Below are positions 14,519 to 44,874 of a stretch of 64,000 nucleotides of DNA, piece after piece. Each line of letters starts with the position of its first letter. The first letter of the stretch is position 1. The position numbers were made by a program, and so were the translations under genes. The notes beneath the pieces were generated by a model, which worked only from the letters and a program-made list of their open reading frames with translations, searched no databases and was not told the origin of the DNA. The DNA is taken from the NCBI RefSeq assembly GCF_057098645.1, contig NZ_CM169472.1. One strand, written 5' to 3'.

Positions 14519-17500
14519 ATGGGTAAAGGCAGCAGTAAGGGGCATACCCCGCGCGAAGCGAAGGACAACCTGAAATCCACGCAGTTGCTGAGTGTGATTG
14601 ATGCCATCAGTGAAGGGCCGGTTGAAGGTCCGGTGGATGGATTAAAAAGCGTGCTGCTGAACAGTACGCCGGTGCTGGACAGTGAGGGGAATACCAACAT
14701 CGCCGGTGTCACGGTGGTGTTCCGGGCTGGTGAGCAGGAGCAGACTCCGCCGGAGGGATTTGAATCCTCCGGCTCCGAGACGGTGCTGGGTACGGAAGTG
14801 AAATACGACACGCCGATCACCCGCACCATCACGTCGGCAAACATCGACCGTCTGCGCTTTACCTTCGGTGTACAGGCACTGGTGGAAACCACCTCAAAGG
14901 GTGACAGGAATCCGTCGGAAGTCCGTCTGCTGGTTCAGATACAACGTAACGGTGGCTGGGTGACGGAAAAAGACATCACCATTAAGGGCAAAACCACCTC
15001 GCAGTATCTGGCCTCGGTGGTGGTGGGTAGCCTGCCGCCGCGCCCGTTTAATATCCGGATGCGCAGGATGACGCCGGACAGCACCACAGACCAGCTGCAG
15101 AACAAAACGCTCTGGTCGTCATACACCGAAATCATCGATGTGAAACAGTGCTACCCGAACACGGCACTGGTCGGCGTGCAGGTGGACTCGGAGCAGTTCG
15201 GCAGCCAGCAGGTGAGCCGTAATTATCATCTTCGCGGGCGCATTCTGCAGGTGCCGTCGAACTATAACCCGCAGACGCGGCAATACAGCGGTATCTGGGA
15301 CGGAACGTTAAAGCCAGCATACAGCAACAACATGGCCTGGTGTCTGTGGGATATGCTGACCCACCCGCGCTACGGCATGGGGAAACGTCTTGGTGCGGCG
15401 GATGTGGACAAATGGGCGCTGTATGTCATCGGCCAGTATTGCGACCAGTCGGTGCCGGACGGTTTTGGCGGCACGGAGTCGCGCATCACCTGTAACGCTT
15501 ACCTGACCACACAGCGTAAGGCGTGGGATGTTCTCAGTGATTTCTGCTCGGCGATGCGCTGTATGCCGGTATGGAACGGGCAGACGCTGACGTTCGTGCA
15601 GGACCGACCGTCGGATAAGGTGTGGACCTATAACCGCAGTAATGTGGTGATGCCGGATGATGGCGCGCCGTTCCGCTACAGTTTCAGCGCCCTGAAGGAC
15701 CGCCATAATGCCGTTGAGGTGAACTGGATTGACCCGAATAACGGCTGGGAGACGGCGACAGAGCTTGTGGAGGACACGCAGGCCATTCTCCGTTACGGTC
15801 GTAACGTCACGAAGATGGATGCCTTTGGCTGTACCAGCCGGGGGCAGGCACACCGCGCCGGGCTGTGGCTGATTAAAACGGAGCTGCTGGAAACGCAGAC
15901 TGTGGACTTCAGCGTGGGCGCAGAAGGGCTTCGCCATGTACCGGGCGATGTCATTGAAATCTGCGATGATGACTATGCGGGTATCAGCGTCGGCGGGCGC
16001 GTGCTTGCGGTAAACAGCCAGACCCGGACACTGACGCTCGACCGTGAAATCATGCTGCCATCCTCCGGAACCACGCTGATAAGCCTGGTTGACGGAAATG
16101 GCAATCCGGTCAGCGTGGAGGTCCAGTCCGTCACCGACGGCGTGAAGGTGAAAGTGAGCCGTGTTCCTGACGGCGTTGCCGAATACAGCGTGTGGGGGCT
16201 GAAGCTGCCGACGCTGCGCCAGCGCCTGTTCCGCTGCGTGAGTATCCGTGAGAACGATGACGGCACGTATGCCATCACCGCCGTGCAGCATGTACCGGAG
16301 AAAGAAGCCATCGTGGATAACGGGGCGCACTTTGACGGTGACCAGAGCGGCACGGTGAATGGTGTCACGCCGCCAGCAGTGCAGCACCTGACCGCCGAAG
16401 TCACTGCAGACAGCGGGGAATATCAGGTGCTGGCGCGATGGGACACACCGAAGGTGGTGAAGGGCGTGAGCTTCCTGCTCCGTCTGACCGTAACAGCGGA
16501 TGACGGCAGTGAGCGGCTGGTCAGCACGGCCCGGACGACGGAAACCACTTACCGCTTCACACAACTGGCGCTGGGGAACTACAGGCTGACAGTCCGGGCA
16601 GTAAATGCGTGGGGGCAGCAGGGCGATCCGGCGTCGGTATCGTTCCGGATTGCCGCACCGGCAGCGCCGTCGCGGATTGAGCTGACGCCGGGCTATTTTC
16701 AGATAACCGCCACGCCGCATCTTGCGGTTTATGATCCGACGGTACAGTTTGAGTTCTGGTTCTCGGAAAAGCGGATTGCGGATATCAGGCAGGTTGAAAC
16801 CACAGCACGCTATCTTGGCACGGCGCTGTACTGGATAGCCGCCAGTATCAATATCAAACCGGGCCATGATTATTACTTTTATATCCGCAGTGTGAACACC
16901 GTTGGCAAATCGGCATTCGTGGAGGCTGTTGGTCAGCCGAGTGATGATGCATCCGGTTATCTGGATTTTTTCAAAGGCGAGATAGGGAAAACCCATCTGG
17001 CTCAGGAGCTGTGGACGCAGATTGATAACGGTCAGCTTGCGCCTGACCTGGCTGAAATCAGGACGTCCATTACGGATGTCAGCAATGAAATCACGCAGAC
17101 CGTCAATAAGAAACTGGAAGACCAGAGTGCTGCAATTCAGCAGATACAGAAGGTTCAGGTTGATACAAATAATAACCTGAACAGCATGTGGGCTGTGAAG
17201 CTGCAGCAGATGCAGGACGGACGCCTTTATATCGCGGGTATTGGTGCCGGTATTGAGAATACCCCTGACGGCATGCAGAGTCAGGTGCTGCTGGCGGCGG
17301 ACAGGATTGCGATGGTTAATCCTGCGAATGGCAACACAAAACCGATGTTTGTTGGTCAGGGCGATCAGATATTCATGAACGACGTGTTCCTGAAACGCCT
17401 GACGGCTCCCACCATTACCAGCGGTGGAAATCCGCCGGCATTTTCCCTGACACCAGACGGAAAGCTGACCGCTAAAAATGCGGATATCAGCGGTAATGTG

Positions 17501-18001
17501 AATGCAAATTCAGGGACGCTCAACAATGTCACGATTAATGAAAACTGTCAGATTAAGGGGAAACTGTCAGCCAATCAGATTGAAGGCGATATTGTCAAAA
17601 CGGTCAGCAAGTCTTTCCCCTGCACGAACAGTTATGCCAGTGGCACCATCACGGTAAGAATCAGTGATGATCAGAAATTTGACCGGCAGGTCATGATACC
17701 GCCAGTGTTATTCCGCGGTGGTAAGCATGAGAATTTCAACAGTAATAACCAACAGTCATACTGGTATTCAACCTGCCGGTTAAGAGTGACCCGCAATGGT
17801 CAGGAGATTTTTAAGCAGTCCACGACGGATGCTCAGGGCGTATTTTCCTCAGTTATAGATATGCCTGCCGGACAGGGGACGCTGACACTGACATTCACCG
17901 TATCTTCATCAGGAGCGAATAACTGGACACCAACAACCAGTATCAGCGATCTGCTGGTTGTGGTGATGAAAAAATCCACAGCAGGTATCAGTATCAGCTG
18001 A
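14519..18001 (+). CDS. J: Tip attachment / host specificity protein J
   Basis: 1160 aa in the lambda J position after I, with SD GGAG upstream. Receptor specificity of the C-terminus cannot be assigned from sequence. Confidence 0.9.
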
Positions 18002-18067: not shown

Positions 18068-18667
18068 ATGCGTAAACTTTATGCCGCCATTTTGTCCGCA
18101 GCCATTTGTCTGGCCGTATCCGGTGCGCCTGCATGGGCGTCTGAACATCAGTCCACGCTGAGCGCGGGGTATCTTCATGCCCGGACGAACGTTCCCGGCG
18201 GTGATGATCTGAACGGGATTAACGTGAAATACCGTTATGAGTTTACGGACACACTGGGGATGGTGACGTCGTTCAGCTATGCAGGAGACAAGAATCGCCA
18301 GATTACCCGTTACAGCGATACCCGCTGGCATGAAGATTCCATTCGTAACCGCTGGTTCAGCGTAATGGCGGGGCCGTCTGTGCGCGTGAATGAATGGTTC
18401 AGCGCGTATGCGATGGCGGGTGTGGCTTACAGCCGTGTGTCGACTTTCTCCGGGGATTATCTCCGCGTAACTGACAACAAGGGGAAAAAGCACGATGTGC
18501 TGACCGGAAGTGATGACGGTCGCCACAGCAACACGTCTCTGGCGTGGGGAGCTGGCGTGCAGTTTAACCCGACCGAATCCGTGGCCATTGATGTCGCTTA
18601 TGAAGGCTCCGGCAGTGGTGACTGGCGCACTGACGGTTTCATCGTGGGTGTCGGTTATAAATTCTGA
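18068..18667 (+). CDS. lom: Lom outer-membrane protein (Ail/PagC/Lom family) moron
   Basis: 199 aa with signal peptide. The C-terminus [25 protein letters not shown] matches lambda Lom. Own SD GAGAGG. Confidence 0.85.
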
Positions 18668-18725: not shown

Positions 18726-21700
18726 GTGAATATGGCAGTAAAGATTTCAGGTGTACTGAAAGACGGCACAGGAAAACCGGTACAGAACTGCACAATCCAG
18801 CTGAAAGCAAAACGTAACAGCACCACGGTGGTGGTGAACACGCTGGCCTCAGAAAATCCGGATGAAGCCGGGCGTTACAGCATGGACGTTGAGTACGGGC
18901 AGTACAGCGTTATTCTGTTGGTGGAGGGATTCCCGCCGTCACATGCCGGGACCATCACCGTGTATGAAGATTCCCGACCCGGTACGCTGAATGATTTTCT
19001 CGGTGCCATGACGGAGGATGATGCCCGTCCTGAGGCACTGCGCCGTTTTGAACTGATGGTGGAAGAGGTGGCGCGTAACGCGTCCGCGGTGGCACAGAAC
19101 ACGGCAGCCGCGAAGAAGTCAGCCAGCGATGCCGGCACATCAGCCCGTGAGGCGGCAACCCATGCGACTGATGCTGCAGGCTCAGCACGCGCAGCCAGCA
19201 CGTCAGCCGGACAGGCCGCGTCGTCGGCTCAGTCAGCGTCTTCCAGCGCAGGAACGGCATCAACAAAGGCCAGTGAAGCATCGAAAAGTGCTGCTGCTGC
19301 AGAGTCCTCAAAAAGCGCGGCGGCTACCAGTGCCGGTGCGGCGAAAACGTCAGAAACGAATGCTGCAGCGTCACAAAAATCTGCAGCCACTTCTGCATCC
19401 ACCGCGACCACGAAAGCGTCAGAAGCTGCCACCTCAGCCCGGGATGCAGCGGCCTCAAAAGAGGCAGCGAAATCATCAGAAACGAGCGCAGCCTCGAGCG
19501 CCAGTAATGCCGCTTCCTCGGCAACAGCGGCAGGAAATTCCGCGAAGGCGGCAAAAACGTCCGAGACGAACGCCAGGTCTTCTGAAACGGCAGCGGAACA
19601 GAGCGCCTCAGCTGCGGCAGACTCTGAGACAACAGCTGCATCATCGGCCCGTGAGGCGTCCATTAAGGCAGAGGAGGCAGCAGTCAGTGCCACCGCCGCC
19701 GGAAAATCGGCAGAAAGCGCCGCATCATCCGCTTCAACAGCCACAACGAAGGCTGGCGAAGCCACTGAACAGGCCAGCGCAGCAGCGAGGTCTGCTTCCG
19801 CAGCGAAGACATCCGAAACGAACGCGAAAGCGTCGGAAACCAGCGCAGAATCCTCAAAAACGGCTGCCGCATCGTCCGCCAGTTCGGCGGCGTCATCGGC
19901 ATCATCGGCGTCTGCTTCAAAAGATGAGGCGACCAGACAGGCGTCAGCAGCGAGGGGCAGCGCCACGACGGCATCCACGAAGGCGACAGAGGCTGCTGGC
20001 AGTGCGGCAGCGGCAGCACAGAGCAAAAGTACGGCAGAATCCGCAGCAACGCGCGCCGAGACAGCAGCAAAACGGGCAGAGGATATTGCATCCGCCGTGG
20101 CGCTTGAGGATGCGAGCACGACGAAAAAGGGGATAGTACAGCTCAGCAGTGCGACCAACAGCACTTCCGAGTCACTGGCGGCAACGCCAAAAGCCGTTAA
20201 GGCCGCGTATGACCTGGCTAACGGGAAATACACCGCACAGGATGCAACGACAGCACAGAAAGGGATAATCCAGCTAAGCAGCGCGACCAACAGCACGTCT
20301 GAAACGCTGGCGGCAACGCCAAAGGCAGTAAAAGCAGCCAATGACAATGCTGAGAAACGTCTGCAGAAAGATCAGAACGGTGCGGATATCCCTGGCAAAG
20401 ACACCTTTACGAAAAATATTGGTGCCTGCCGTGCCTTCGGTGGGTCAGTAAGCACAACAACAGGAAACTGGACGACTGCACAGTTTATCGAGTGGCTGGA
20501 TTCTCAGGGAGCATTTAACCATCCATACTGGATGTGCAAGGGTTCCTGGTCTTATGGCAATAATAAAATCATTACTGATACTGGCTGCGGTAATATTCAT
20601 CTCGCCGGAGCTGTCATTGAAGTAATGGGGATAAAGTCAGCGATGACGATCCGCATTACCACACCGACCACCTCCACTGGTGGTGGAACAACTAACGCCC
20701 AGTTTACCTATATTAATCACGGAACAGATTATTCACCTGGCTGGCGAAGGGACTATAACTCCAGAAATAAGCCAACGGCATCAGAGATCGGGGCGTTACC
20801 GTCAGGTGGAACAGCAGTATCATCAGTTAATCTGTCTTCAAAAGGTCGGGTAACCGCGCTGACAGACAATACGCAGGGGGCAACAGGTCTTGAGTTATAC
20901 GAGGTGTATAACAACGGATATCCAACAGCGTATGGAAATATCATTCACCTGAAAGGGATGACAGCCGTTGGCGAAGGTGAGTTACTCATCGGCTGGAGTG
21001 GTACAAGCGGTGCTCATGCTCCGGCATTTATTCGTTCACGACGGGATACGACCGACGCAAACTGGTCGCCGTGGGCGCAGCTTTACACCTCGGCTCATCC
21101 TCCTGCAGAGTTTTATCCAGTCGGTGCACCAATCCCGTGGCCATCAGATACCGTTCCGTCTGGTTATGCCCTGATGCAGGGGCAGACTTTTGACAAATCT
21201 GCTTACCCGAAACTTGCAGCCGCTTATCCGTCAGGCGTGATCCCTGATATGCGTGGCTGGACGATTAAGGGCAAGCCCGCCAGTGATCGAGCCGTATTGT
21301 CTCAGGAACAGGACGGCATTAAATCACACACCCACAGCGCCAGCGTATCCAGTACGGATTTGGGGACGAAAACCACATCGTCGTTTGATTACGGCACTAA
21401 ATCCACGAATAACACTGGTGCGCATACCCATAGTGTTAGCGGTACGGCTGCTTCAGCCGGTGCACATACCCATTCGATGACATTTGTTTCAGGTGGTTCC
21501 AGTGGTGCTCCGGGAAGTGGATCACCTGATTACTCTAAATACAGTGTTAACACTTCTTCTGCAGGCGCTCATACGCACTCTGTATCGGGTACTGCTGCAA
21601 GCGCAGGTGCACACGCACATACTGTCGGTATTGGTGCTCATACGCACTCCGTTGCGATTGGTTCACATGGACATACCATCACCGTTAACGCTGCTGGTAA

Positions 21701-21755
21701 CGCGGAAAACACCGTCAAAAACATCGCATTTAACTATATTGTGAGGCTTGCATAA
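18726..21755 (+). CDS. stf: Side tail fiber protein Stf (mosaic)
   Basis: 1009 aa. N-terminus [26 protein letters not shown] and the His-rich C-terminus ([55 protein letters not shown]) match lambda Stf. The middle carries an Ala/Ser-rich shaft and an extra Cys-containing domain. Confidence 0.85.
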
Positions 21756-22336
21756 TGGCATTCAGAATGAGTGAACAACCACGGACCATAAAAATTTATA
21801 ATCTGCTGGCCGGAACTAATGAATTTATTGGTGAAGGTGACGCATATATTCCGCCTCATACAGGTCTGCCTGTAAACAGTACCTATATTGCACCGCCAGA
21901 TATTCCGGCTGGTTTCGTGGCTGTTTTCAACAGTGATGAGTCATCGTGGCATCTCGTTGAAGATCATCGGGGTAAAACGGTTTATGACGTGGCTTCCGGC
22001 GACGCGTTATTTATTTCTGAACTCGGTCCGTTACCGGAAAATGTTACCTGGTTATCGCCGGAAGGGGAGTTTCAGAAGTGGAACGGCACAGCCTGGTTGA
22101 AGGATACGGAAGCAGAAAAACTGTTCCGGATCCGGGAGGCGGAAGAAACAAAAAACAACCTGATGCAGGTAGCCAGTGAGCATATTGCGCCGCTTCAGGA
22201 TGCTGCAGATCTGGAAATTGCAACGGAGGAAGAAATCTCGTTGCTGGAAGCATGGAAAAAGTATCGGGTATTGCTGAACCGTGTTGATACATCAACTGCA
22301 CCTGATATTGAGTGGCCAGCAGCACCTGTAGGATAA
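21755..22336 (+). CDS. tfa: Tail fiber assembly protein Tfa
   Basis: 193 aa, near-identical to lambda Tfa as I recall it ([39 protein letters not shown]). Confidence 0.9.
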
Positions 22337-22436
22337 AACAAAAACTTTATATAGAGTGCTCTTTTTACAATGTCAGATAAATGCTGGCCGAAATGTAATT
22401 CATTAGAAGTAAAAAACAGAATGGTTTGAGGGTGTG

Positions 22437-22480
22437 TCATCCCTTTATTATTAATAGTGAAAGGGATGACATTCTTTTTT
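22437..22480 (+). terminator. Rho-independent terminator downstream of tfa
   Basis: 11-bp stem GTCATCCCTTT / AAAGGGATGAC with a 12-nt loop, followed by ATTCTTTTTT. Confidence 0.7.
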
Positions 22481-22676
22481 AAGGAGTGTCTTTTTTATCG
22501 GAATATAAGTTGAGATAATGTTTAACTCGATTATAAAAATGTTTTTTCTTATCTCTTGGAATGCTTACTATTATATGCATTATGGGGCTTGTGTTTGCCG
22601 ATAATTTAGCTGATGCATACATTGAAGCAAGGAATTCAATATCAGTATTGTCAAAATTAAAACTTTCTCCATCCAT
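22479..22676 (-). CDS. Hypothetical 65-aa protein (orphan moron ORF)
   Basis: ORF in low-GC DNA with a plausible SD (AAGGA 8 nt before the ATG on the minus strand). No recognisable motif. Confidence 0.35.
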   Translation of the reverse strand: MDGESFNFDNTDIEFLASMYASAKLSANTSPIMHIIVSIPRDKKKHFYNRVKHYLNLYSDKKDTP

Positions 22677-22982
22677 TTCAATTCCTTATGTGTTTGGCTC
22701 GGTATACTGTATCCCATGAGATTTTACGTAAATTGTCATATCTAATATTGCAATTATAATTGTAGCTAATTATTTTAAATTAGGTGAAAGTTTATTGCGA
22801 ATGATTAACTCGGAAAAAAAGATTTCTCACGGTTAGTAAGTATATTAGGTCAGTATTCAGATATGAGTAGTGTTAACGACTAAATTTGCAATCACATATA
22901 GATTTTTGTTCTAATAAAGATGTTTTATTTGGCGATTCGTCAAGCATCTCCACTTAAGCAATCGTATATATTAAGAGTGCAA

Positions 22983-23078
22983 AAGAGAAGGGACAACGTT
23001 GCTCGCACTCTGGAATAAATATCGGGTATTGTTAAAGTGTGGTGATACATAATTGTACGGGATATTGAGTGGCCTGAA
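22983..23078 (+). pseudogene. Decayed second copy of the tfa 3' end
   Basis: CTGGAATAAATATCGGGTATTG...GATACAT...GATATTGAGTGGCC aligns to the tfa 3' end at about 22240-22330 (CTGGAAGCATGGAAAAAGTATCGGGTATTG...GATACATCA...GATATTGAGTGGCC), but with an in-frame stop and an indel. Confidence 0.5.
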
Positions 23079-23213
23079 GTCCCAGTCATTGAGTAATCTT
23101 TTCGTGATATGCCGCAGAAACGTTGTATGCAGGAACGTGCTGCGGCTAACTGGTGAACTTTCGATAGTGCGGGTATTGAATGATTTCCAGCCGTTACCGA
23201 TTTTACGTGCTAA

Positions 23214-23462: not shown

Positions 23463-23475
23463 AAAAATCCCTCTA

Positions 23476-23495
23476 CACTGTGTTTGTATACAGTA
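23476..23495. promoter_or_regulatory. LexA box 1 (SOS operator) upstream of the dinI-like gene
   Basis: CACTGTGTTTGTATACAGTA, which fits CTG-N10-CAG and the consensus TACTGTATATATATACAGTA. Lies 16 bp upstream of the dinI-like start. Confidence 0.7.
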
Positions 23496-23503
23496 TTATT
23501 TTT

Positions 23504-23523
23504 AACTGTATGAATAAACAGTG
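23504..23523. promoter_or_regulatory. LexA box 2 (SOS operator)
   Basis: AACTGTATGAATAAACAGTG, fits CTG-N10-CAG. Its centre is 28 bp from box 1. Confidence 0.65.
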
Positions 23524-23681
23524 TCAATAGAACAAAGATTGCTGCATGTACAAATGTTCTTTGGCTACAAATACACCTACTGATCATGTTCTGCTATGCT
23601 CTGATACCTCCAAAATGTACAATCAGCGGCATGAATTTTTCTTTGTACATATGATTGTACATAATCAAAGAGACAACAATT

Positions 23682-25268
23682 ATGACAAGCCTTTTGGCCG
23701 CAGAGGTAGCGAAAAGAAGAACCTTTGCAATTATTTCTCACCCGGACGCCGGTAAGACTACCATCACCGAGAAGGTGCTGCTGTTCGGACAGGCCATTCA
23801 GACTGCCGGTACAGTAAAAGGCCGTGGTTCCAACCAGCACGCTAAGTCGGACTGGATGGAGATGGAAAAGCAGCGTGGGATCTCCATTACTACGTCTGTG
23901 ATGCAGTTTCCGTATCACGATTGCCTGGTTAACCTGCTCGACACCCCGGGGCACGAAGACTTCTCGGAAGATACCTACCGTACCCTGACGGCGGTGGACT
24001 GCTGCCTGATGGTTATCGACGCCGCAAAAGGTGTTGAAGATCGTACCCGTAAGCTGATGGAAGTTACCCGTCTGCGCGACACGCCGATCCTCACCTTTAT
24101 GAACAAACTTGACCGTGATATCCGCGACCCGATGGAATTGCTCGATGAAGTTGAGAACGAGCTGAAAATTGGCTGCGCACCGATCACCTGGCCAATTGGC
24201 TGCGGCAAGCTGTTTAAAGGCGTTTACCACCTTTATAAAGATGAAACCTATCTCTATCAGAGCGGTAAAGGGCACACCATTCAGGAAGTCCGCATTGTTA
24301 AAGGGCTGAATAACCCGGATCTCGATGCTGCGGTTGGTGAAGATCTGGCACAGCAGCTGCGTGACGAACTGGAACTGGTTAAAGGCGCGTCTAACGAGTT
24401 CGACAAAGAGCTGTTCCTTGCGGGCGAAATCACTCCGGTATTCTTCGGTACTGCGCTGGGTAACTTCGGCGTTGATCATATGCTGGATGGCCTGGTGGAG
24501 TGGGCGCCTGCGCCGATGCCGCGTCAGACCGATACCCGTACCGTAGAAGCGAGCGAAGATAAATTTACCGGCTTCGTATTTAAAATTCAGGCCAACATGG
24601 ACCCGAAACACCGCGACCGCGTGGCGTTTATGCGTGTGGTGTCCGGTAAATATGAAAAAGGCATGAAACTGCGCCAGGTGCGCACTGCGAAAGATGTGGT
24701 GATCTCCGACGCGCTGACCTTTATGGCGGGTGACCGTTCGCACGTTGAAGAAGCGTATCCGGGCGATATCCTCGGCCTGCACAACCACGGCACCATTCAG
24801 ATCGGCGACACCTTTACCCAGGGTGAGATGATGAAGTTCACCGGTATTCCGAACTTCGCACCAGAACTGTTCCGTCGTATCCGCCTGAAAGATCCGCTGA
24901 AGCAAAAACAGCTGCTCAAAGGGCTGGTACAGCTTTCCGAAGAGGGCGCGGTGCAGGTGTTCCGTCCAATCTCCAACAACGATCTGATCGTTGGTGCAGT
25001 TGGTGTGCTGCAGTTTGATGTGGTGGTAGCGCGCCTGAAGAGCGAATACAACGTTGAAGCAGTGTATGAGTCAGTCAACGTTGCCACTGCCCGCTGGGTA
25101 GAATGTGCAGACGCGAAGAAATTCGAAGAGTTCAAGCGTAAGAACGAAAGCCAACTGGCGCTTGATGGCGGCGATAACCTCGCTTACATCGCTACCAGCA
25201 TGGTCAACCTGCGCCTGGCACAGGAACGTTATCCGGACGTTCAGTTCCACCAGACCCGCGAGCATTAA
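23682..25268 (+). CDS. prfC: Peptide chain release factor 3
   Basis: 528 aa with the GTPase motifs [12 protein letters not shown] and DTPGHEDF. Beyond the first ~9 residues it matches K-12 RF3 as I recall it. Start chosen at ATG 23682 (MTSLLAAEV); the ORF-track start at 23655 is an extension. Confidence 0.95.
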
Positions 25269-43863: not shown

Positions 43864-44874
43864 TTAACGGGTCGGCAGCGGAGCGTTTTCCGCAACCAGA
43901 TTTTGACGGCACATTTCTGCCCAGAATTCAGCCGGAACAGGCGCATTCAGTGCAGCCAGATCTTCTGCCATACGGCCAGGACGGCTGGAGCCAGGAATAA
44001 CCGCTGCAACGGCCGGGTTTGCCAGCGCGAACTGCAGCGCAGCCGCTTTAACGTTCACATTGAAACGTGTGGCAATGGCGTTAATTTGCGCCACTTTCTG
44101 CTGGATGGCCGCAGAGGCTTTCTGATATTCAAAGTGCTCGCCGCCTGCCAGTACGCCAGAGCTGTATGGACCGCCCACAACGATATCCACGTTCTGTTCC
44201 AGTGCTTCTGGCATCAGGCGTTGCAGCGCACGTTCGTGATCCAGCAGGGAATAACGCCCCGCCAGCAGGAACGCATCCGGCTTCGGTTCGTCCAGCGCCA
44301 GCGTCAGTTCGCAAGGTTCGACGCGGTTCACACCCAGTCCCCAGGCTTTAATCACACCTTCGTCACGCAAACGCGTCAGCGCACGAAATGCACCGGTACG
44401 GGCAATGTTGAACTGCTCCAGCCAGCTGTCACCGTAGAAGTCCTGCGCCGGGTCGTGGATCCAGACAATGTCCAGACGGTCTGTTTTCAGGCGTTTCAGG
44501 CTGTCTTCAATCGATCGCAGCGTGGCGTCAGCAGAGTAGTCATTCAGAATTTTGTTTTTCAGGCCGTGTTCGAACAGGCCACCTTTTTCACCGAAATCCC
44601 GTTTTGCCGGATCTTCCATTTCGTCCAGCATGATGCGACCGACTTTGCTACTCAGAACGTATTCATCGCGTGGATACTGAGACAGCGCTTCACCCATGCG
44701 GATTTCAGAAAGGCCAGAGCCGTACAGCGGCGCGGTATCAAAGTAACGCACACCCAGGTTCCAGGCTTCGCTCACGGTGGCGTGGGCCTCTTCTTCCGGA
44801 ATGGCACGGAACATGTTGCCAAGTGGTGCGCCGCCTAAGCCAATTTTGCCGGGGAGTAAATTTTTAATGCTCAT
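43864..44874 (-). CDS. Aldo/keto reductase
   Basis: 336 aa with FDTAPLYG and AKR-typical spacing. SD GAGGA. Confidence 0.8.
   Translation of the reverse strand: MSIKNLLPGKIGLGGAPLGNMFRAIPEEEAHATVSEAWNLGVRYFDTAPLYGSGLSEIRMGEALSQYPRDEYVLSSKVGRIMLDEMEDPAKRDFGEKGGLFEHGLKNKILNDYSADATLRSIEDSLKRLKTDRLDIVWIHDPAQDFYGDSWLEQFNIARTGAFRALTRLRDEGVIKAWGLGVNRVEPCELTLALDEPKPDAFLLAGRYSLLDHERALQRLMPEALEQNVDIVVGGPYSSGVLAGGEHFEYQKASAAIQQKVAQINAIATRFNVNVKAAALQFALANPAVAAVIPGSSRPGRMAEDLAALNAPVPAEFWAEMCRQNLVAENAPLPTR

Follow-up and report, generated by a model that had tools for sequence, protein, structure and literature searches.

A degraded copy of the 3' end of tfa lies downstream of the intact tfa gene at the right end of a lambda-like prophage. 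It is best explained, with a probability of about 0.8, by recombination that joined a left phage arm carrying stf, tfa and an AT-rich insert to a point inside the tfa gene of a right arm carrying tfa, a hairpin and dinI. According to this reading, the fragment would be the dead 3' end of a tfa gene that once bordered directly on the right-end hairpin and dinI-like gene of a lambdoid phage. Two collinear lambdoid genomes would have recombined, the left arm bringing an stf of its own, a complete tfa that differs in its C-terminal tail, and the AT-rich insert with a minus-strand ORF of 65 aa, and the right arm having been broken within its tfa, some 147 bp short of the stop codon. The left-hand joint of the fragment would most likely have been illegitimate (non-homologous), and the fragment would later have decayed, mainly by GC-to-AT changes and single-base deletions.

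The stretch of DNA analysed here (the window) is 64 kb long, and its first 23.7 kb constitute the right part of the prophage (Table 1). The prophage is integrated within the 5' end of prfC, with the att junction at about 23733, and supplies a replacement promoter region together with the first ~17 codons of prfC, which differ from the native start. Homology common to prophages at other integration sites stops at about 23527, near-identity to the prfC of non-lysogens starts at about 23733, and the prfC junction is present in 643 genomes. In strain 210205630, which is 99.9% identical over 22337-23213, the genes are annotated as in the window, and the RefSeq annotation of this genome holds no feature at the site of the tfa fragment.

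Table 1. Features of the prophage right end, in window coordinates.
Feature	Coordinates	Strand	Basis or remark
J	14519-18001	+	
lom	18068-18667	+	
stf, side tail fibre gene, 1009-aa ORF	18726-21755	+	ORF list; annotated by RefSeq as phage tail protein in the 99.9%-identical locus
Intact tfa, 193 aa	21755-22336	+	Pfam Caudo_TAP PF02413, E 2.9e-43
Native 3' flank of intact tfa	22337-22490	+	Terminator-like hairpins 22428-22445 and 22468-22490
65-aa ORF, cargo of the AT-rich insert	22479-22676	-	Annotated hypothetical protein WP_000348577
AT-rich region upstream of the 65-aa ORF	22677-22949	.	Composition (~29% GC); minus-strand promoter-like sites
tfa 3' pseudogene fragment, last ~49 codons	22950-23096	+	Secure core 22997-23096
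Spacer from tfa fragment to dinI, part of the conserved right-end module	23097-23213	.	
Conserved hairpin directly past the ancestral tfa stop	23111-23146	.	Minus-strand fold, -16.6 kcal/mol
DinI-like gene, 82 aa	23214-23462	-	Pfam DinI PF06183, E 1e-19; RefSeq WP_001217546
Prophage right end, up to the att junction inside prfC	23463-23732	.	
prfC	from ~23682	+	

The similarity between the fragment and tfa lies far above the level obtained from shuffled sequence. A local alignment of tfa with 22346-23213 reaches a score of 48; the scores of 300 dinucleotide shuffles average 11.8 (sd 1.4) and peak at 18. The blastn match between tfa and the downstream copy has an E value of 1.1e-11. The preliminary description had reported a decayed copy of the tfa 3' end downstream of the intact gene, and this is confirmed. 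The two sequence blocks that it had named, ATATCGGGTATTG and GATATTGAGTGGCC, are real, and the fragment is not low-complexity sequence of the kind that might have produced such a match. Two ungapped blocks of direct repeat account for most of the alignment, one pairing 22239-22292 of tfa with 22997-23050 (54 nt, 78%) and the other pairing 22294-22329 with 23051-23086 (36 nt, 75%); they are set apart by a 1-base deletion in the downstream copy, and the offset of the direct repeats is 758 bp. The core of the fragment thus repeats the final 100 bp of tfa in direct orientation, and the longest exact match between fragment and intact gene is 14 bp.

The limits of the fragment were set separately on each side. 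Leftward, 22950-22996 aligns to tfa 22190-22238 in a fixed register, with matches in 28 of 49 columns, a score that only 2 of 2000 shuffles reach. The same fixed-register test shows no tfa homology in 22900-22949 or 22850-22899, and an independent local alignment of 22800-22996 with the rest of tfa is no better than shuffles. The alignment to the Rfam family discussed below reaches back to 22873, but it is not trusted beyond about 22950 because both tests fail upstream of that point. Rightward, the fragment runs to an in-register ancestral stop codon at 23094-23096. The span given in the preliminary description (22983-23078) therefore contained true homology but was too short at both ends, and its single figure of about 75% identity is replaced by about 78% for the core of 100 bp and about 71-73% for the full 147 bp. 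The left joint itself is too decayed to be placed exactly.

The fragment is a pseudogene. It is collinear with the 3' end of a tfa gene (Caudo_TAP, PF02413) through the stop codon, it retains the native downstream context of such a gene (hairpin, spacer and dinI), and once two 1-base deletions are repaired it reads ...SAKEKGTTLLALWNKYRVLLKCGDTSIVRDIEWPEVPVIE*. It has no start codon, and it preserves only the last ~49 codons, with at least three frame breaks and an in-frame TAA, which is incompatible with a functional Tfa chaperone. The loss of one base in GATACAT(C)AATTG (23050/51) creates the TAA at 23050-23052, so that the stop and the frameshift noted in the preliminary description are both present, although they result from this one deletion rather than from two lesions. 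The reading frame is broken by at least two further 1-base deletions, near 22964 and at 22986-22990. The TAA-creating deletion is common to the copy at the prfC site and to the copy found in prophages at the Qin site, and it is therefore older than the split between these lineages, while the deletion at 22986-22990 is specific to the lineage of the window. Relative to intact genes, about 20 changes from GC to AT have accumulated against about 10 from AT to GC; an excess of this kind is the expectation for unconstrained DNA in E. coli. Moreover, among prophage gene fragments of its class this one is unusually decayed. Between the prfC-site and Qin-site lineages, however, it is 91% identical (22950-23096 against L002 6613-6760), whereas the insert and the spacer beside it are only 66-85% identical. 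Such a difference is not predicted by pure neutral decay, and gene conversion, constraint and chance are all possible explanations.

On its right side, the fragment runs straight into the hairpin, the spacer and the dinI-like gene. The same hairpin-spacer-dinI sequence also stands 3' of tfa fragments in mEp460, PhiR49_2, O157:H7, O111:H8 and several other prophages, in which the spacer is 83-97% identical to that of the window. A composite query, made by joining the tfa body of the window to an O157-type tail, hairpin and dinI, was matched as one 949-bp piece with 95-98% identity in many E. coli genomes. Coverage of this query reaches at least 80% in 97 E. coli genomes, where an intact tfa is followed directly by the hairpin and dinI; in the locus L010, for instance, an intact tfa of 585 bp lies 115 bp from dinI. 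Therefore, an uninterrupted stf-tfa-hairpin-dinI arrangement exists, and the fragment in the window is its tail end.

The stem of the hairpin is kept in seven sequence variants that have different inner stem pairs. In the variants of O157, mEp460 and L005 (a prfC-site prophage of another strain), a U-tract follows the minus-strand hairpin, and hairpin and U-tract together have the form of a canonical dinI terminator. The U-tract is absent from the window variant, whose hairpin is probably the stem of the dinI terminator. Part of the spacer (23120-23213) also matches a fixed chromosomal relic present in more than 4000 E. coli genomes. This relic has the order yagU, tfa fragment, ykgJ, a stretch of ~94 bp that is 87% identical to the hairpin-dinI spacer, and ecpE (L003 3387-4094). 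It looks like the remains of the right end of an ancient prophage, with ykgJ in the position of cargo.

The intact tfa of the window belongs to a different sequence type from the fragment. It is 94-100% identical to the annotated tfa genes of six comparison loci (L001, L002, L010, L011, L012 and L014), and its identity to other tfa genes is 97.5%, against only 78% to the fragment. The two copies end differently, the intact gene in AAPVG* and the fragment in EVPVIE*, and they are followed by different sequences, the intact gene by AAAACAAAAACTTTATATAGAGTGC... and the fragment by the hairpin. The AAPVG* tail and its flank recur in Qin-site prophages as a second tfa fragment (fragment A), which is followed by the native flank of the intact tfa at L002 5904-6040. 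The order in these prophages is a fragment with the AAPVG*-type tail and flank, then the same AT-rich insert, and then the same fragment as in the window. The different tails and flanks of the two tfa copies thus indicate that different phage lineages were joined, rather than that one gene was duplicated locally. The preliminary description had seen in the fragment the scar of an earlier exchange of tail-fibre modules, and the native dinI-side context of the fragment, together with the different tail and flank of the intact gene, bears this out in substance.

The insert between the two copies (22337-22949) has 30% GC, compared with 47% in tfa and 55% in stf. Minus-strand promoter-like matches occur at 22801-22772 and 22788-22759; they are consensus matches only, and promoter-like and terminator-like consensus matches are no commoner in the insert than in shuffles. 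The 65-aa ORF has no Pfam, PHROG or NCBIfam match. Compared with its Qin-site counterpart, to which it is 79% identical in nucleotide sequence, it has no indels, and its codon differences comprise 20 non-synonymous and 9 synonymous ones. The 877-bp region that includes this ORF (22337-23213) is covered to at least 80% in 578 genomes and occurs in two lineages that are ~82% identical. In the phage collection, no record joins the region of the 65-aa ORF to the fragment, the phage matches starting at 22997 or later, and no donor phage was found in which this region runs into a right flank other than this tfa fragment.

Fragments of the tfa 3' end were found in 12 related loci, with about eight distinct left breakpoints, all within the last ~210-240 bp of the gene. 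In tfa coordinates, the left ends fall at 374 (L006), 409 (L011), 433 (L004 and L007, the O157 and O111 loci), ~436 (the window, L001 and L012), 440 (L008, which is mEp460, and L013), 465 (L005 and L009), 484 (fragment A in L002, L013 and L014) and 344-406 in the yagU-ykgJ chromosomal relic. If illegitimate joints formed at random, their confinement to this part of the gene would call for some further filter, whether selection, subsequent deletion or a hotspot at the site. In O157 and O111, type III effector genes, namely espW, espM2 and DUF1076 genes, lie as cargo to the left of the fragment, while other fragments have a methyltransferase gene, alternative fibre genes or small AT-rich ORFs in this position. 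Some loci carry serial fragments, two in L002 and L014 and three in L013. In the Qin-site remnants (L013 2026-3589 and L002 4734-6736), each serial fragment is followed by a different AT-rich cargo, and the layered fragments record successive joins.

A matched pair of prophages at the yecD integration site illustrates how such a layout may arise. One of them (L010) has the order tfa-hairpin-dinI. The other (L011) has a tfa ending in TNPVSE*, a hairpin, a minus-strand gene for a SAM-dependent methyltransferase, a tfa fragment that starts at position 409 and ends in EEPDTM*, a second hairpin and dinI. The two tfa ends of L011, whose repeats are ~89% identical, are plainly different alleles, each with its own hairpin variant. 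Judged from gene order and alleles, this is the layout to be expected from one unequal join of two collinear phage genomes, in which the left arm would extend up to and including the minus-strand gene in the usual place of dinI, and the right arm would start inside tfa. The window has the same layout, its cargo being the 30%-GC insert with the minus-strand 65-aa ORF.

Breakpoints also occur on the right-hand side of the fragments. A spread sample was taken of the matches to a segment combining the final 210 bp of tfa with the spacer and dinI. In this sample the start of the dinI module varies, some copies beginning inside tfa, others at its stop codon or hairpin, others past the hairpin, and others only at the dinI ORF. 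Very many E. coli matches to tfa end at about position 563, where the tails diverge. L005 and L009 have an identical left flank and breakpoint and split after GATATTGA(A/G)TGGCC, past which L005 continues into a flank of the type adjacent to pin and L009 into the hairpin-dinI flank. Likewise, L008 and L013 have a common breakpoint and fibre-gene flank and split at the same place, L008 continuing into hairpin-dinI and L013 into a tfaQ-type tail and another AT-rich cargo. In both pairs, the divergence on the right starts inside the last ~60 bp of the fragment. The conserved block before the variable tail is thus a recurrent switch point, in an intact gene as well as in a fragment, and its use shows recombination, not selection for the fragment. 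The stf-tfa region had also been called a recombination hotspot. In the comparative sense this holds, given about eight left breakpoints, the varied left boundaries of the dinI module and two cases in which the crossover fell inside a fragment.

Among the alternatives to a join of two phage arms, similarity by chance or through low complexity has a practically negligible probability, in view of the score and E value given above, the collinearity with the end of tfa as far as the stop codon, and the independent fragments of the same kind in 12 other loci. The direct repeats that flank the insert at an offset of 758 bp are the arrangement that an in-place tandem duplication of the tfa 3' end would leave, if the AT-rich sequence had been inserted afterwards and the second copy had decayed. 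This course of events is very improbable, since the two copies differ in C-terminal tail and in 3' flank and each is ~90% or more like a separate lineage, the intact copy being far closer to other tfa genes than to the fragment. The two copies of L011, which are clearly different alleles, argue against it as well.

The preliminary description had also considered a lost invertible fibre segment and had suggested looking for an invertase or its sites. Invertible tail-fibre segments are known from Mu (G/Gin), P1 (C/Cin) and e14 (P/Pin), and the window resembles them in having a duplicate tfa-type sequence near stf-tfa, with a Pin-like gene in a relative at the same integration site. For the fragment to be a relic of such a Gin/Cin/Pin-type segment, an alternative copy of tfa and the invertase would have to have decayed or been lost. 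The search brought to light a recombinase-family (Pin-like) gene right after the partial tfa of L005, and the intact tfa of the window has a tail resembling the pin-adjacent type; this resemblance, however, concerns the intact copy and not the fragment. Unlike the alternative copies of invertible segments, which are inverted, the fragment is in direct orientation, and no inverted tfa match was detected by blastn or tblastn. A tblastn search with the Pin-like protein of L005 against the whole 64 kb gave a best E value of 0.98. No hix/gix-like crossover site lies near stf-tfa, according to a ~26-bp consensus that defines the site approximately; at 3 mismatches a single match turns up, at 44587, against a chance expectation of 0.15. 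The AT-rich insert contains no pin remnants, as the L005 region matches only the tfa tail and ~17 bp of flank. The 3' flank of the fragment is the hairpin-dinI module rather than a fibre gene or an invertase, and like fragments occur in phages and at prophage ends that have no annotated invertase nearby. On the grounds of direct orientation, the absence of an invertase from the 64 kb and of a crossover site from the neighbourhood of stf-tfa, and the dinI flank, the lost invertible segment was rejected as a source of the fragment, and its probability is very slight.

In the join of a left and a right phage arm favoured here, the insert would also be expected to persist. The recombination of E. 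coli has requirements for the length of homology, and the 14-bp longest exact match between the two tfa copies would probably be too short for efficient homologous deletion of the insert.

A further question is whether the fragment is kept for a function, either as a portable patch of homology for swaps of right-hand modules or as an expressed RNA of the IS009 type. IS009 is an E. coli candidate small RNA (Rfam RF02111) whose model aligns both to the fragment and to the 3' half of tfa. The fragment scores 37.8 bits (E 8e-7), well below the gathering threshold of 117, and many of the predicted pairs are broken or non-canonical in it. The 3' halves of intact tfa genes score 212-224 bits (window 22098-22296, L002 5077-5275 and L011 3844-4042), the value for the window gene being 223.6. 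The score is lower, 193.6 bits, for the yagU-ykgJ relic (L003 3387-3587) that most E. coli carry. Although filed as a gene for a small RNA, RF02111 looks like tfa-derived sequence and not a distinct RNA gene; if so, the IS009 match adds nothing beyond the homology to tfa. The homology-patch version can draw on the occurrence of the same fragment with different right-hand modules (L005 against L009, L008 against L013), on the very many tfa matches that end where the tails diverge, and on the higher conservation of the fragment than of its flanks between lineages. Against this, recombinational use does not show selection, the window copy shares an exact match of at most 14 bp with the intact tfa, and the IS009 model is essentially tfa coding sequence. 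On balance, retention for a function is unlikely.

A more general and still rather doubtful suggestion is that the last ~100 bp of tfa, whether in a gene or in a fragment, may serve as a reusable homology linker for stacking, swapping and deleting right-hand modules. The two fragments joined to different right-hand modules and the conservation of the fragment above that of its flanks are the hints that point to it. Were it correct, dinI, pin, methyltransferase genes, effector loci and small AT-rich ORFs would be exchangeable among lambdoid prophages, and a role as linkers could be what preserves the fragments or keeps them uniform through gene conversion.

The fragment can be placed among known arrangements at prophage ends. 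PMC8112680 applies the term exchangeable effector loci to the regions that encode effectors at the extreme end of lambda-like prophages, and a literature search on tfa fragments flanking morons or effector loci returned only this general definition and nothing specific to the fragments. The right border of such loci in O157 and O111 consists of a tfa fragment and the dinI that comes after it. The window agrees with the partial tfa next to DinI-like genes in O157:H7 and O111:H8 in the gene end involved, in the hairpin-spacer-dinI sequence and in the position between cargo and prophage end. It differs in that its cargo is the 65-aa ORF instead of type III effectors, its fragment is ~78% identical to intact tfa instead of ~93%, the fragment is unannotated in the 99.9%-identical RefSeq genome, and an intact tfa lies upstream. 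In position and composition, 22337-22949 corresponds to a moron or exchangeable locus, lying between the fibre genes and the att junction and being poor in GC. It falls outside the strict definition of an effector locus, as its only conserved ORF encodes 65 aa without a family match. The mosaic joints and morons of lambdoid phages reportedly arise by non-homologous recombination followed by selection (Hendrix, Juhala and colleagues). Like a moron, the window contains a low-GC insert between conserved modules, with promoter- and terminator-like signals and a gene fragment at the joint, although its promoter and terminator are consensus matches only.

Prophage gene fragments of this class are well known, and the one described here is an ordinary example that has gone unannotated; recombination scars of this type are common and ordinary in E. 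coli prophages. In itself the fragment is of little importance, giving the date and place of a single recombination joint in a single prophage family. Nevertheless, a tfa 3' fragment that is followed by the hairpin and dinI reliably marks the right edge of the accessory-gene zone of lambda-like prophages, effector loci of EHEC included, and the order of stacking of cargo units can be read from serial fragments. Moreover, IS009 matches inside prophages should be read as tfa sequence and not as genes for small RNAs, because the same sequence underlies this Rfam family.

Two phage records, both deposited as complete genomes, have no annotated tfa and carry only a tfa 3' fragment between the fibre genes and dinI, namely mEp460 (L008 1310-5216) and PhiR49_2 (L009 2319-5214). 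In L013, a fibre gene with a 3' end of the mEp460 type is annotated as an S74-family peptidase, a fibre type reported to carry its own chaperone domain.
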